In this document: piece after piece, positions 24,765 to 30,240 of the stretch
Layout of the letters: every line of letters starts with the position of its first letter
How positions within the stretch are numbered: position 1 is the first letter of the stretch
Origin: Desulfobulbus propionicus DSM 2032
Lineage (GTDB): Bacteria > Desulfobacterota > Desulfobulbia > Desulfobulbales > Desulfobulbaceae
NCBI RefSeq assembly: GCF_000186885.1
Contig: NC_014972.1
Coordinates: 1,230,001 to 1,262,000 of the forward strand
Length of the DNA: 32,000 bases
Direction of reading: 5' to 3'
Position numbers and translations under genes: made by a program
The notes under the pieces: model-generated
The model's input: the letters and a program-made list of their open reading frames with translations, nothing else
Database searches by the model: none
What the model was told of the DNA's origin: nothing

Positions 24765-26183
24765 ATGGCGAAACAAAAGAAAACCCGGCCGCCGGACGGC
24801 GTCACCGACATCATTCTGGAGAGTATTTCGGACGGCGTGTTCACGGTCAACCACGAATGGCGGATCATGTCGTTCAACCGGGCGGCCGAGGAGATCACCG
24901 GCGTTCCCCGCGAGGAGGCCATCGGCCGCTATTGCTGGGAGGTCTTTCGCTCCAACATGTGCGAGGGGGACTGCGCCCTGCGGAAGACCATGAAGGAAGG
25001 GCGCTCCTTTGTCAGCAGTTCGACCTACATCATCAACAGCGACAAGAAGCGCATCCCGATCAGCGTTTCCACCGCGCCGCTGAAAAGCGAATCGGGCGAA
25101 ATCCTCGGCGGAGTGGAAACCTTCCGCGACAATACGGTGGTGGAGGAACTGCGCCGCGAACTGAGCGCCACCTTCCGCCAGGGCGACATGGTCAGCCGCA
25201 GCCGGGCAATGAAGAAAATCTTCGCGGTCCTGCCGCAGATTGCCGAGAGCGACTCCACGGTGCTGATCGAGGGCGAGACCGGCACCGGCAAGGAGATCAT
25301 GGCCAGATCGCTCCATGACCTCTCCACCCGGCGAGACAAACCCTTTGTGGCCATCAACTGCGGCGCCCTGCCCGACACCCTGCTCGAATCCGAGCTGTTC
25401 GGCTACAAGGCCGGGGCATTCACCAATGCCGCCCACGACAAGCCGGGCTATTTCAGCCTGGCCGATGGAGGCACCATCCTGCTTGACGAATTGGGCGAGA
25501 CCAGCCCGGCCTTTCAGGTCAAGTTGCTGCGGGTACTGGAGGAGCGGGAATTCCAGGCCCTGGGCAGCATCAAAAAGGAGCGGGTCAACGTGCGCATCCT
25601 GGCGGCCACCAACCGTAATTTGGAAGCCCTGGTCGAGCAGGGCAGCTTCCGCCGCGACCTCTTCTATCGGATCAATATTGTCCGCTTGCCACTGCCGCCC
25701 CTGCGCGAGCGCAAGGAAGACATCCCGCTCCTGATCGAGCGGTTCATCGACAAGATGAATCGGCTGCGCGGTAAAATGCTCAGCGGCATCGAACCCGCGG
25801 CTTTGGAACGGTTGATGGCCCACGAGTATCCGGGAAATATCCGCGAGCTGGAAAATATCATCGAGCACGCCTTTATCCTGTGTTCCCAGGGGCCGATCGG
25901 TCTTCACCACCTGCCGGCCTACCTGCACGCCACCCCTCTGTCCACGTCAGCTCCCGCCCCAGTGACCGCGCCGCCCTCGGCCTCCATGAGCGCCCTGCAC
26001 CGGGCCACTGAACGGGAGGCCATCCTCGAAGCCCTAGAGCGCAACAACTACAACCGGTTGGCCGCCGCCCGCGAACTGGGCATGCACAAGTCCACCCTGT
26101 TTCGGAAAGTGAAGAAACTGCAGCTCGATCTGCCGGAGATCGACGGCCGCCATAGCGGCGCAAAGACGAGCAGGGTCGCGTGA
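24765..26183 (+). CDS. Sigma-54-dependent enhancer-binding protein (PAS - AAA+ - Fis-type HTH)
   Basis: PAS domain (ILESISDGVFTVNHEWRIMSFNRAAEEITG), Walker A GETGTGKE, Walker B LLDELGE, a GAFTGA-loop variant GAFTNA, RRDLFYRIN, and a C-terminal HTH (LAAARELGMHKSTLFRKVKKL). I prefer the ATG at 24765 over the TTG at 24732. Confidence 0.9.
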   Translation: MAKQKKTRPPDGVTDIILESISDGVFTVNHEWRIMSFNRAAEEITGVPREEAIGRYCWEVFRSNMCEGDCALRKTMKEGRSFVSSSTYIINSDKKRIPISVSTAPLKSESGEILGGVETFRDNTVVEELRRELSATFRQGDMVSRSRAMKKIFAVLPQIAESDSTVLIEGETGTGKEIMARSLHDLSTRRDKPFVAINCGALPDTLLESELFGYKAGAFTNAAHDKPGYFSLADGGTILLDELGETSPAFQVKLLRVLEEREFQALGSIKKERVNVRILAATNRNLEALVEQGSFRRDLFYRINIVRLPLPPLRERKEDIPLLIERFIDKMNRLRGKMLSGIEPAALERLMAHEYPGNIRELENIIEHAFILCSQGPIGLHHLPAYLHATPLSTSAPAPVTAPPSASMSALHRATEREAILEALERNNYNRLAAARELGMHKSTLFRKVKKLQLDLPEIDGRHSGAKTSRVA

Positions 26184-26263
26184 TTGCAACTATGCAACGG
26201 TGCACAGGGTCGCATGCGGATCGCCGTGCAACGCAACAACGACCGTCCGTGCCAGTGGTGCAT
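26171..26263 (+). promoter_or_regulatory. Cluster of TGCA-cored repeats; candidate upstream activating sequences
   Basis: TGCAAC at 26185, 26193 and 26227. GTGCAC (26200-26205) and GCATGC (26212-26217) are palindromes. TGCAC/GTGCA inverted arms lie at 26201-26205 and 26226-26230. The 12-mer CAGGGTCGC(G/A)TG is repeated at 26171 and 26205. The cluster sits about 60-150 bp upstream of the -24 element, with an A/T-rich stretch (26264-26300) in between. Confidence 0.4.
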
Positions 26264-26320
26264 GGAAAATAGTCTGTTTTTTCAAAGAGATTCGCTTTTG
26301 GTTGTCATGTCGCTCTATTG

Positions 26321-26335
26321 TGGCACACAATATGC
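26321..26335 (+). promoter_or_regulatory. Sigma-54 (-24/-12) promoter
   Basis: TGGCAC-acaat-ATGC matches the consensus TGGCAC-N5-TTGC with exact spacing and one mismatch. It lies 13 nt upstream of an AGGTGA SD and the ATG at 26348, directly downstream of an EBP gene. Confidence 0.7.
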
Positions 26336-26347
26336 TTTTAGGTGAGT

Positions 26348-26872
26348 ATGAAAGCACGAGGCCCAGGGAAAAAAATTGCCGTCACCGTCTGGGAGCAGCG
26401 GGTTTCGCCGGTGTTTGATTCGGCTCGTACCCTGTTGATCGCGGAGATCAACGGCAATGCCTTGGTCGGGACGTCCCTGCTCGCCTTTGATCCCGAACGG
26501 CCGGGAGAACTGTTGCAGATGCTTCGTGCCCAGCAGGTGATGCTGATTATCTGCGGCGCGGTGTCGGAAGGGCCGGCGTCCATGCTCGAGGCTGCGGGGG
26601 TGGAACTGATCCCCTTCATCACCGGTGACGTTCGCCAGGTCCTTGCACAGTATCTGCTGGGTCGGCCCTTTGGTCCGGAATTTCGCATGCCGGGTTGCGG
26701 CAAGCAGATCTGTTGTCGCGGCAGAATCCGGCGCGGACGGGAAATCGGGGCTGGTTCGGTCACCGCTGGGTGGATTGGTGGCGGCCGGACAGGCCGGGGC
26801 GAAAAGAGCGCCATCAACGAGGGGGCGGAGAAGCTGCCGGAAACGCCGGCATCTTCGTGGAAACACGAATGA
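26348..26872 (+). CDS. NifB/NifX-family (dinitrogenase FeMo-cofactor-binding fold) protein with Cys/Gly/Arg-rich C-terminal tail
   Basis: KIAVTVWEQRVSPVFDSARTLLIAEI...MLIICGAVSEGPASMLEAAGVELIPF matches the RxSPxFD subtype of small NifX-like proteins. The tail is MPGCGKQICCRGRIRRGREIG...GGGRTGRG. Confidence 0.8.
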   Translation: MKARGPGKKIAVTVWEQRVSPVFDSARTLLIAEINGNALVGTSLLAFDPERPGELLQMLRAQQVMLIICGAVSEGPASMLEAAGVELIPFITGDVRQVLAQYLLGRPFGPEFRMPGCGKQICCRGRIRRGREIGAGSVTAGWIGGGRTGRGEKSAINEGAEKLPETPASSWKHE

Positions 26873-26910
26873 ACGCCTGAAAGAACAACAGCGAGCGACG
26901 GAGGGAGAAT

Positions 26911-29378: not shown

Positions 29379-29405
29379 CAAATAAAGGAACAAGGAGAAA
29401 AACCA

Positions 29406-29780
29406 ATGGTGCGATTAGCCATTCCCTCCGAGGGACAAGGCGGGCTGGACGGCATGCGGGCCGGTCATTTCGGGCACTGCGACGTGTTTACCTGCATCGA
29501 TGTCGAGGACGGCCAGATCAAGCAGGTCTCGATCCTGCCCAACCAGGAGCATGTGCAGGGCGGCTGCATGGTGCCGGTCACCCTGCTGGCCCAGGCAGGC
29601 GTCAACGCCCTGGTGGTTGGCGGCATCGGCATGCGGCCGCTGATGGGTTTTCGTCAGGTCGGCATCGAGGTCTACCACGACGGTGTCCGTCCGGAGATCC
29701 GGCCGGTGGTCGAGGACTTCATCGCCGGCAACCTGCCGAAAATCGCTGACAACCAGGTCTGCGGTGGCGGCGGTCACTGA
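29406..29780 (+). CDS. NifB/NifX-family small protein (HFGHC subtype)
   Basis: RLAIPSEG...GHFGHCDVFTCIDV...GVNALVVGGIGMRPL. Strong SD (AAGGAGAAA). Confidence 0.85.
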   Translation: MVRLAIPSEGQGGLDGMRAGHFGHCDVFTCIDVEDGQIKQVSILPNQEHVQGGCMVPVTLLAQAGVNALVVGGIGMRPLMGFRQVGIEVYHDGVRPEIRPVVEDFIAGNLPKIADNQVCGGGGH

Positions 29781-29801
29781 CCTGAACGGCAAGGAGGAAG
29801 A

Positions 29802-30161
29802 ATGAAAATTGCGGTGACATCCAAGGGCGTCCTGCTGGACAGCGAGGTCGATCCCCGCTTTGGCCGGGCGCCGTATATCCTGATCGTCGAGACCGACACC
29901 ATGGCCTTCGAGGTGGTGGATAACAGCGACAACGTCAATGCCTTCAAGGGGGCGGGCATTCAGGCGGCGACCATGGTCAGCGACAAGGGCGCCAAGGTGC
30001 TGATGACCGGCTATTGCGGCCCGAAGGCCTTCGCCACCCTGGAGGCTGCCGAGATCAAGGTGGTCAGCGACGTGACCGGCAAGGTTCGCGATGCGGTGGC
30101 CGATTTCAAGGCGGGCAAGATACTCTATTCGACGGCGGCCAACAAGGAGGCCCACTGGTAA
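29802..30161 (+). CDS. NifB/NifX-family small protein (RFGRAPY subtype)
   Basis: MKIAVTSKG...VDPRFGRAPYILIVE...GAKVLMTGYCGPKAF. Strong SD (AAGGAGGAAG). Confidence 0.85.
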   Translation: MKIAVTSKGVLLDSEVDPRFGRAPYILIVETDTMAFEVVDNSDNVNAFKGAGIQAATMVSDKGAKVLMTGYCGPKAFATLEAAEIKVVSDVTGKVRDAVADFKAGKILYSTAANKEAHW

Positions 30162-30194
30162 GGCGTACTGGAGCCAATCCGTCGATAAAACGAA

Positions 30195-30240
30195 AGCCGG
30201 ACAGCGGGGCGACATGTTCGCCTCCTGCCCGGCTTTTTTT
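30195..30240. terminator. Bidirectional intrinsic terminator shared by the cluster and the convergent MCP gene
   Basis: An interrupted stem of about 15 bp (AGCCGGACAGCGGGGCG...CGCCTCCTGCCCGGCT) is followed by T7 on the + strand and by TTTCGTTTTAT on the - strand. Confidence 0.7.

Follow-up and report, generated by a model that had tools for sequence, protein, structure and literature searches.

What is the role of a sigma-54-controlled operon of ferredoxin-containing ATPases and NifX-like proteins in a genomic region without nitrogenase genes? This question arises from a stretch of 32,000 nucleotides of Desulfobulbus propionicus DSM 2032 (NC_014972.1, positions 1,230,001 to 1,262,000; the window), in which the gene of a sigma-54 enhancer-binding protein (EBP) is followed by seven co-directional genes. 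The first-pass annotation of this DNA, made from the sequence alone, proposed an uncharacterised metallocluster system. We find that the functional class was recognised correctly: Fe-S ATPases and NifX-fold cluster carriers, controlled by sigma-54 and an EBP and unrelated to nitrogenase. The label 'uncharacterised' is refuted: the module is the orp/ORP system, on which work in Desulfovibrio vulgaris Hildenborough appeared between 2011 and 2021. The orp cluster and ORP complex (DVU2103-DVU2109) were reportedly described by Fievet 2011, and described by Pardoux 2019; the activator OrpR (DVU2106) is the subject of Fievet 2021.

Taken as a whole, the locus is best explained, with a probability of about 0.8, as an orp (ORange Protein complex) locus, consisting of an OrpR-type activator gene and a single sigma-54 operon whose products make up a cytoplasmic metalloprotein complex. 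It is the Desulfobulbus version of an already named and partly studied orp/OrpR system of sulfate-reducing anaerobes.

Operon products resemble the components of the ORP complex

The literature on the ORP complex was reached through a match to MrpORP (positions 266-365, 4.9e-13), the only NCBIfam match among the three NifX-like proteins, found for the second of them (NifX-B). In D. vulgaris Hildenborough, orp3-orp4-orp5 (DVU2103-2105) and orp7-orp8-orp9 (DVU2107-2109) flank orpR (DVU2106), and both operons have sigma-54 promoters that require OrpR as well as integration host factor (IHF) (PMC3897727, PMC4641369). Two [4Fe-4S] ferredoxin motifs are found in each of the MinD-like proteins Orp3 and Orp4; the orange protein, Orp8, has a non-covalent [S2MoS2CuS2MoS2] cluster, and Orp5 is homologous to a small [2Fe-2S]-binding protein. 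Orp9, or MrpORP, combines an Mrp/NBP35 ATPase with a NifX-fold 'Di-Nase' domain and hands Fe-S clusters to Orp3/Orp4 (PMC6345978). The complex found in vivo consists of Orp3/4/5/8/9 (PMC6345978, PMC3897727, PMC8359166, PMC4641369). Our comparison with D. vulgaris stands on the DVU2109 sequence (from a printed supplement), primer sequences and the orange protein of D. gigas, with the locus of Desulfovibrio sp. X2 (L087) as a stand-in.

All three NifX-like proteins match Pfam Nitro_FeMo-Co, and their translations contain the motifs that distinguish them as subtypes: RVSPVFD in NifX-A, HFGHC in NifX-B and RFGRAPY in NifX-C. NifX-C matches the orange protein (ORP) of Desulfovibrio/Megalodesulfovibrio gigas (PDB 2wfb_A) over its full length (phmmer E=3.3e-25), far better than other NifX-fold structures. 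The two proteins have 119 and 120 amino acids, respectively, and share the RFGRA motif, although their hosts belong to different bacterial orders (Desulfobulbales in the case of the protein described here).

NifX-B aligns with the C-terminal 'Di-Nase' domain of DVU2109 with 30% identity, including HFGHC, the motif singled out by the MrpORP authors (PMC6345978), and a C-terminal Cys/His. In the MrpORP model (NCBIfam NF041136) it likewise aligns with the C-terminal Di-Nase domain, whereas the window protein has no counterpart of the Mrp/NBP35 ATPase domain and its CXXC motif. Against the equivalog cutoff of 450 bits, the best scores in the window are 53.8 for ATPase 1 and 49.1 for the HFGHC protein.

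The two ATPases fit the published description of Orp3/Orp4, being MinD-like, with two ferredoxin motifs, of matching size and with 47% similarity. ATPase 1 has 31.1 kDa and ATPase 2 about 32 kDa; in sequence they are 31% identical. As the first-pass annotation had reported, both translations contain KGGTGKT, a pair of CxxCxxCxxxC motifs and PPGxxCP. The closest relatives of ATPase 1 in the PDB are archaeal MinD proteins, which cover the ATPase part alone; a PDB sequence search returned MinD matches alone and no solved structure of the ferredoxin-insert ATPase family. ATPase 1 and ATPase 2 form a single open reading frame (ORF) in four related loci: L031 (13190-15010), L034 (12531-14354), L060 (10251-12728) and L067 (7065-8912). 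These fusions argue for a putative heterodimer of the two ATPases. The conserved Cys of DxPPGxxCP lies seven residues past the Walker B Asp, which is the Asp125-Cys132 spacing of NifH switch II. Going by this spacing, a metal site at the dimer interface is conceivable.

NifX-A, which by its position is Orp7-like, is composed of a 105-aa IPR003731 domain with a WxxRVSPVFD signature and a 69-aa cationic tail rich in Gly, Arg and Cys (isoelectric point (pI) 10.1; 14 Gly, 13 Arg+Lys, 3 Cys). A PDB sequence search found no relative of this protein. IssA, which stores thioferrate, and its 'IssX' relatives combine an IPR003731 domain with a cationic, Gly-rich tail (PMC5524996). NifX-A shares with IssA of Pyrococcus furiosus (PF2025) the domain of about 105 aa and the Gly-rich cationic tail of about 70 aa, which is probably disordered; the tail pI is 10.1 here and 10.7 in IssA, a likeness known here from architecture and composition. 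Unlike that of IssA, the NifX-A tail is poor in aromatic residues and contains three Cys.

The second gene of the operon encodes a small protein of 74 aa that starts with MPGMDGKGPTGTGP, the N-terminus of DUF5320, and does not have the C-terminal coiled coil. It is rich in Gly, Arg and Cys, with a pI of 11.5. Its score against Pfam DUF5320 (18.6 bits) falls below the cutoff of 27; the D. rhabdoformis orthologue reaches 27.6 bits, and in other loci full-length DUF5320 proteins (73-93 bits) fill the same slot. The published forward primer of the dvu2105-dvu2104-dvu2103 construct encodes MPYGDGT, and through this primer Orp5 can be linked to the DUF5320 family. As cited in PMC6345978, a small ORP-operon protein binds [2Fe-2S] (Maiti 2016). 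An alternative frame for the small ORF (26924-27145), used in some public gene calls, was rejected, as the frame starting at 26911 carries the DUF5320 N-terminus conserved in relatives. Public gene calls for this locus (L001-L006) either leave out the small ORF or place it in an overlapping frame, 26924-27145, that is wrong; the DUF5320 frame is 26911-27135.

Profile hidden Markov models (Pfam, NCBIfam) placed every protein in the family named by the first-pass annotation. Iterated profiles merged the three NifX subfamilies and drew ATPase sequences into the profile of the receiver (REC)-like protein; the subfamily labels were therefore taken from first-pass phmmer searches.

Both the locus described here and the D. 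vulgaris cluster are confined to anaerobes and have a sigma-54 promoter whose own EBP is encoded alongside, a pair of MinD-type ATPases that each carry two ferredoxin motifs, an orange protein and NifX-fold ('Di-Nase') proteins; a small protein, of putative DUF5320 type, is also encoded in both. They differ in features found here: a pseudo-receiver coupled to ATPase 1, a truncated DUF5320 protein, a first NifX-fold protein with a cationic tail, a hairpin within the operon and a probably leaderless first gene.

The gene set is conserved beside OrpR-type activators

We scanned one genome per species with an alignment of the EBP PAS domain and surveyed the best 80 loci. At least 600 stretches matched, and in at least 581 of them PAS relatives with the Cys triad were confirmed; Desulfobulbales, Desulfobacterales, Myxococcota, Acidobacteria, Zixibacteria, KSB1 and further groups are represented. 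About 22 Desulfobulbales and Desulfobacterales loci have their genes in the order EBP, NifX-A, (small ORF), REC-like, ATPase, ATPase, NifX-B, ORP, so that the syntenic unit asked about in the first-pass annotation is real and widespread. Loci from more distant phyla have the EBP followed by NifX-A and usually also ORP, two ATPases and another NifX-fold gene. The NifX-A gene directly follows the EBP gene and promoter in most related loci.

MrpORP equivalogs are encoded at three of the more distant EBP-linked loci (L081, L083 and L067), where they score 494-534 bits against the NCBI cutoff of 450, a link between the entire gene set and the orp cluster of the literature. In Desulfovibrio sp. X2, a Cx8Cx3C EBP adjoins an operon whose genes all run in one direction, with a NifX-A-like gene, a 112-aa ORF, ORP, two ATPases, a NifX gene and a REC-like gene. 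No D. vulgaris locus is among the best 80, and no D. vulgaris protein is named among the matches listed for the D. gigas ORP query. MrpORP architecture itself varies in OrpR-linked clusters: the Mrp-type protein is encoded without Di-Nase in L059 (12566-13486) and with an extra N-terminal Cys-rich segment in L065 (15874-17160).

An OrpR-type activator with a cysteine-bearing PAS domain

The EBP has the Pfam domains PAS_9, Sigma54_activat (9e-66) and HTH_8, and shares its PAS-AAA+-HTH architecture with OrpR (DVU2106). Its PAS domain contains the motif Cx8Cx3C at C57/C66/C70 with a Glu (E59) at +2, the counterpart of C52/C61/C65 and acidic residue 54 of OrpR. This motif is kept in 119 of the 120 best PAS-domain homologues, and the three Cys are invariant in an alignment of 22 sequences. 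Both proteins also have a variant of the GAFTGA loop, which reads GAFTNA at residue 217 here and GAFTDA in DVU2106. In both organisms the regulator gene adjoins its target operon; the candidate site upstream of the operon here is, like the D. vulgaris site, palindromic with a CGCA...TGCG core. The two systems differ in that an AGTCGCA-N4-TGCGACT-like site takes the place of GGGCGYRTTTTGCGCCC here, no IHF site is recognisable, and there is one target promoter instead of two.

The PAS domain of OrpR holds a redox-sensitive [4Fe-4S]2+ cluster that needs C52, C61 and C65. Active near -425 mV, OrpR is inactive near -280 mV; its only targets are the two orp operons (PMC8359166). Redox-responsive control through a Cys-bearing PAS domain, as proposed in the first-pass annotation, has thus been demonstrated experimentally for the homologous D. 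vulgaris protein (PMC8359166).

Transcription of orpR in D. vulgaris depends on sigma-70 (PMC3897727). For the EBP gene described here, a sigma-70-like promoter candidate is located in the intergenic region between the divergent TetR and EBP genes (Table 1), a candidate suggested by its consensus match alone. Farther downstream and still ahead of the EBP gene, the segment 24640-24700 contains GCAAC/GTTGC-type repeats, GGCAACGATTGCGCAACCC and GGGGTTGCC, which resemble half-sites of the candidate OrpR palindrome. None of these repeats passes a palindrome search at one mismatch. Judging from their likeness to half-sites, they may serve autoregulation.

The sigma-54 promoter and the candidate upstream site

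The proposed -24/-12 promoter at 26321, TGGCACACAATATGCT, is the sole match to TGGCAC-N5-TTGCW (1 mismatch) in the 32 kb. Chance expectation is 1.28, so the count is not above chance and the case for the promoter is made by positional conservation. Its GGC...TGC core is invariant and at the same position in 10 aligned relatives, and about 38 related loci have a similar site ahead of the NifX-A gene. On this evidence we regard the promoter as real. A consensus scan with one mismatch revealed no second sigma-54 promoter before the REC-like gene.

Upstream of this promoter, the window's sole exact match to GTYGCR-N4-YGCRAC, the palindrome GTCGCGTGATTGCAAC, is a candidate upstream activating sequence (UAS). 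It overlaps the EBP stop codon, and its centre lies about 140 bp upstream of the -24 GG, a distance comparable to that of the D. vulgaris OrpR sites at -131 and -88 (PMC3897727). A CAGGGTCGCrTG element is repeated at 26170-26182 and 26204-26216. AGTCGCA-N4-TGCGACT is common in the upstream regions of relatives, with GTCGCA present in 23 of 39 and the exact palindrome in 9. The half-site of GTCGCGTGATTGCAAC resembles the 17-bp D. vulgaris palindrome GGGCGYRTTTTGCGCCC in the CGCA...TGCG core without being identical to it. A search for GGGCGYRTTTTGCGCCC with three mismatches found no match in the Desulfovibrio sp. X2 locus, and the OrpR site evidently differs between genera. Judged by position and symmetry, the candidate UAS would be the binding site of the OrpR-type EBP.

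By homology with D. vulgaris OrpR, the regulation of the operon is well supported and may be pictured as follows. The EBP would be made from its own promoter and sit on the palindrome about 140 bp upstream of the -24/-12 promoter, whatever the redox state. At very low redox potential the PAS [4Fe-4S]2+ cluster, held by the three Cys of Cx8Cx3C, would be intact, permitting the ATP-driven opening of the sigma-54 promoter complex. With rising potential, the cluster would be oxidised or lost, the PAS domain would repress the AAA+ domain and the operon would be switched off. Because activation would occur only with an intact PAS cluster, expression would be confined to very low redox potential. These steps were shown for the D. 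vulgaris homologue, from which we infer them here.

Transcript features of the operon

The ATG of NifX-A is located only 13 nt past the C of the -12 element and is itself the predicted transcription start site. The Shine-Dalgarno (SD)-like sequence AGGTGAG, 1 nt from this ATG, would fall outside the transcript. Strong SD sequences had been claimed for all seven genes; the first of them has none that is usable. With the ATG at the predicted start site and no usable SD, the simplest reading is that the sigma-54 transcript of the first gene is probably leaderless. A start codon 12-14 nt past the -12 C also occurs in seven relatives (L007, L009, L012, L014, L042, L074 and L075), two of which offer no alternative start. 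In other relatives the first orp gene has a normal SD in a leader of 30-50 nt.

Inside the operon, a terminator-like hairpin with an 11-bp stem followed by U8 lies between the DUF5320-like and REC-like genes, directly 5' of the REC-like SD. Hairpins with a T-run occupy the matching spot in L009 (~12400-12430) and L012 (~12395-12432). Their stem sequences are unrelated, and conservation of position despite this suggests that the structure is under selection. The hairpin could be a transcription attenuator, or a stabiliser of the upstream segment that raises the amounts of the first two products. Since the T-run abuts the REC-like SD and no second promoter is found, the downstream genes need read-through. 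At the 3' end, the bidirectional terminator of the first-pass annotation (at about 30195-30240), shared with a convergent chemoreceptor gene, was borne out by strong folds on both strands: -33.7 kcal/mol (z -6.0), followed by U7, on the plus strand and -30.4 kcal/mol on the minus strand.

A pseudo-receiver family linked to the ATPase

The REC-like protein had been called a pseudo-receiver, a call upheld by its predicted structure: a receiver fold with a degenerate phospho-acceptor pocket. The AlphaFold2 model (predicted local distance difference test (pLDDT) 86) has a (beta-alpha)5 fold, which Foldseek matches to solved receivers with a probability of 1.00 and template modelling (TM) scores of 0.73-0.76. 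The fold is that of CheY-like receivers (TM ~0.75), whereas the phospho-acceptor pocket is degenerate and the protein has a patch of its own, FHExTEGLGVxMQLP, on alpha-4/beta-5. Compared with a CheY reference sequence, AKN stands where the acidic pair follows beta-1, and the Lys of beta-5 is missing. A protein of D. propionicus DSM 2032 matches the REC-like protein with 100% identity. The conserved residues of the family are NPxxN(T/C)A and FHExTEGLGVxMQLP, on alpha-4/beta-5. The family is discrete: only 991 of 1.84 billion representative proteins are matched at E<=1e-3 and 427 at E<=1e-10, and the motif is present in 127 of the 147 newly retrieved top representatives.

The gene is translationally coupled to that of ATPase 1 by the ATGA overlap, and in one metagenome-assembled genome (L025, 8502-9737) the two are fused as a single ORF. 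Together with the ATPase-ATPase fusions described above, this REC-ATPase 1 fusion lends support to contacts between the subunits. We infer that the pseudo-receiver is a docking or coupling subunit of the ATPase and not a signalling receiver, with ATPase 1 as its probable docking partner. The REC-like gene stands last in the orp operon in Desulfovibrio sp. X2, L078 and L089. One database protein (P0290) combines DUF5320 with Response_reg.

Were the protein a genuine phospho-receiver, a histidine kinase would control the ATPases by phosphorylation and the system would have a second signalling input. The Asp at the end of beta-3 (VIVDEQ) is indeed retained in the window protein, the Pfam Response_reg cutoff is passed, and a hybrid histidine kinase is encoded in the window at 8383-10161. 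However, this Asp, the equivalent of Asp57, gives way to Gly, Ala or Ser in many orthologues, the Mg-binding acidic pair and the conserved beta-5 Lys are absent, conservation has settled on alpha-4/beta-5 instead, and no locus surveyed has a cluster-linked kinase. A phosphorylation switch is therefore very unlikely, and the degenerate pocket speaks for the pseudo-receiver.

Possible functions of the complex

By homology, the operon products would be assembled into a cytoplasmic metalloprotein complex. It would comprise a heterodimer of the two MinD-type ATPases with two [4Fe-4S] clusters each, the orange protein with its non-covalent anionic Mo-Cu-sulfide cluster, two more NifX-fold carriers, one of them with an IssA-like cationic tail, the small Gly/Arg/Cys-rich DUF5320 protein and, in this lineage, the pseudo-receiver. 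Such a complex would most likely use ATP to hold, build or hand over anionic metal-sulfide clusters where conditions are strongly reducing and sulfidic. A more specific picture, which we offer as a tentative and rather unlikely conjecture, is a machine driven by ATP that handles anionic metal-sulfide species, for example thiomolybdate-copper clusters or thioferrate-like Fe-S polymers. Here, the cationic Gly/Arg-rich proteins and NifX-fold carriers would hold the anions by electrostatic attraction, as IssA does, the ferredoxin ATPase heterodimer would load or unload them, and the undescribed pseudo-receiver family (FHExTEGLG, ~430 clusters at 50% identity) would provide the coupling. If true, this would give the orange protein complex a function.

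Several observations weigh against assigning the locus to the orp system or against a metal-sulfide role. The genes form one co-directional operon here and two divergent operons in D. vulgaris, and the terminator-like hairpin breaks the operon after its second gene. The Mrp/NBP35 P-loop domain that defines Orp9 is absent from the window, where a free Di-Nase homologue alone is encoded. The half-site bases and the spacer (4 vs 3) of the candidate UAS are not those of the D. vulgaris site. Between UAS and promoter (26190-26320), the IHF consensus WATCARNNNNTTR finds no match at one mismatch and an A/T-rich tract alone is present; the functional D. vulgaris IHF sites are themselves just 67-78% similar to the consensus (PMC3897727). 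Orthology to Orp3, Orp4, Orp5 and Orp7 rests on domain features, gene position and one primer sequence, and the comparison at sequence level covers just Orp8, through D. gigas ORP, and the C-domain of Orp9. Finally, the D. vulgaris group reports morphological defects and favours a link to cell division, while itself calling the role unclear (PMC8359166).

The last point leads to a device for cell division or positioning, in which the MinD-like ATPases would place the septum or another structure and the metal clusters would be just cofactors or redox gates. The ATPases do belong to the MinD/ParA class with a deviant Walker A motif, the morphological defects follow OrpR inactivation (PMC8359166), MrpORP is found at the cell pole, and C-terminal amphipathic helices are predicted for Orp3/Orp4 (PMC8359166, PMC6345978). 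Nevertheless, positioning would not call for small carriers or binders of metal clusters, which five of the seven products are; MinE-like, MinC-like or DNA-binding partners are not encoded, and the D. vulgaris authors themselves describe the role as unclear. We regard such a device as unlikely. The composition of the operon, with its pair of ferredoxin ATPases, three NifX-fold carriers and two cationic segments, fits metal-sulfide handling better than septum placement. That same abundance of Nitro_FeMo-Co proteins, along with weak NifH-family matches for the ATPases, might instead suggest a module for the assembly or carriage of a nitrogenase-type (FeMo-co-like) cofactor, with the NifX-like proteins shuttling NifB-co-type clusters. 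This explanation is largely refuted. No nifHDK, nifEN or nifB gene is present in the 32-kb window, in agreement with the first-pass annotation, or in the related loci surveyed; structurally, the orange protein rather than NifX or NafY is the closest relative; and the family is described as a general feature of anaerobes with no link to diazotrophy (PMC8359166, PMC3897727).

Gene layout and surroundings

ORFs and public gene calls agree on the coordinates of the eight plus-strand genes (Table 1), and the positions first given for the EBP gene and the seven co-directional genes were confirmed, as were the overlaps at 27622 (ATGA) and at 28473-28488 (16 nt). The start of the REC-like gene had been put at 27185 and was corrected: the gene most likely begins at TTG 27227 behind the SD AAGGAGAG, as in public gene callers. 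Because of this start, the gap after the second gene measures 91 nt instead of the 20-40 nt given in the first-pass annotation.

Table 1. Genes and regulatory features of the orp locus, in window coordinates
Feature	Position	Strand	Evidence
Sigma-70-like promoter candidate for the EBP gene, TTGAAA-17-TACAAT	24592-24620	+	Consensus scan, 10/12
OrpR-type sigma-54 EBP (PAS, AAA+, Fis-type HTH)	24765-26183	+	Pfam, Cys motif
Candidate UAS, palindrome GTCGCGTGATTGCAAC	26175-26190	.	Sole exact GTYGCR-N4-YGCRAC match in the window
Sigma-54 (-24/-12) promoter, TGGCAC-N5-ATGCT, TGGCACACAATATGCT	26321-26336	+	Scan and positional conservation
NifX-fold protein A (NifX-A), Orp7-like by position	26348-26872	+	Pfam Nitro_FeMo-Co, 5.6e-10
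Small Gly/Arg-rich protein, N-terminal DUF5320 part, Orp5-like	26911-27135	+	DUF5320, 18.6 bits, below cutoff
Terminator-like hairpin, 11 bp, then U8, inside the operon	27180-27212	+	-15.2 kcal/mol, z -2.7
Pseudo-receiver (REC fold)	27227-27625	+	Pfam Response_reg, 33.1 bits; AlphaFold2, Foldseek
MinD/ParA-type ATPase 1, inserted 2x[4Fe-4S] ferredoxin domain, Orp3/Orp4 type	27622-28488	+	Pfam ParA, CbiA, Fer4
MinD/ParA-type ATPase 2, inserted 2x[4Fe-4S] ferredoxin domain, Orp3/Orp4 type	28473-29378	+	Pfam ParA/CbiA, Fer4
NifX-fold protein B (NifX-B, HFGHC), free-standing homologue of the MrpORP C-domain	29406-29780	+	Pfam, 1.6e-18; NCBIfam
Orange protein ORP (NifX-C), Orp8 orthologue	29802-30161	+	PDB 2wfb_A match; Pfam Nitro_FeMo-Co, 3e-23
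Bidirectional intrinsic terminator, shared with the convergent chemoreceptor gene	30193-30240	.	Fold energies on both strands

Neighbouring genes in the window encode a TetR regulator, an enoyl-CoA hydratase, a CoA-disulfide-reductase-like flavoprotein with a rhodanese domain and a methyltransferase; further genes encode an MFS transporter, an adenine deaminase, an oxoprolinase and similar proteins. A radical-SAM protein of the spore-photoproduct-lyase family, unrelated to NifB, is encoded at 1696-3381 on the plus strand. Two rhodanese sulfur-transfer proteins are encoded near the orp locus, a rhodanese-metallo-beta-lactamase protein (14191-15462) and a pyridine-nucleotide-disulfide oxidoreductase with rhodanese (21375-23210). 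Directly 3' of the orp operon of Desulfovibrio sp. X2 there is a Lactamase_B + Rhodanese gene (13106-14491 of L087). The rhodanese genes near orp may provide a link to persulfide or sulfide supply, or their presence may be coincidence.

Implications for the orp/OrpR family

The annotation of these genes as 'NifX-like', 'response regulator' or 'ATP-binding' should be replaced by that of an orp/OrpR locus. The kind of system is not new; the orp/OrpR family gains a member with some lineage-specific features, and the pairing of OrpR with orp genes reaches well past Desulfovibrio. Compared with the description from the model organism, the new parts are the pseudo-receiver tied to ATPase 1, the ATPase-ATPase fusions, the free Di-Nase protein that replaces MrpORP and the IssA-like tail. 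These added parts offer concrete starting points for work on the function of the orange-protein system.

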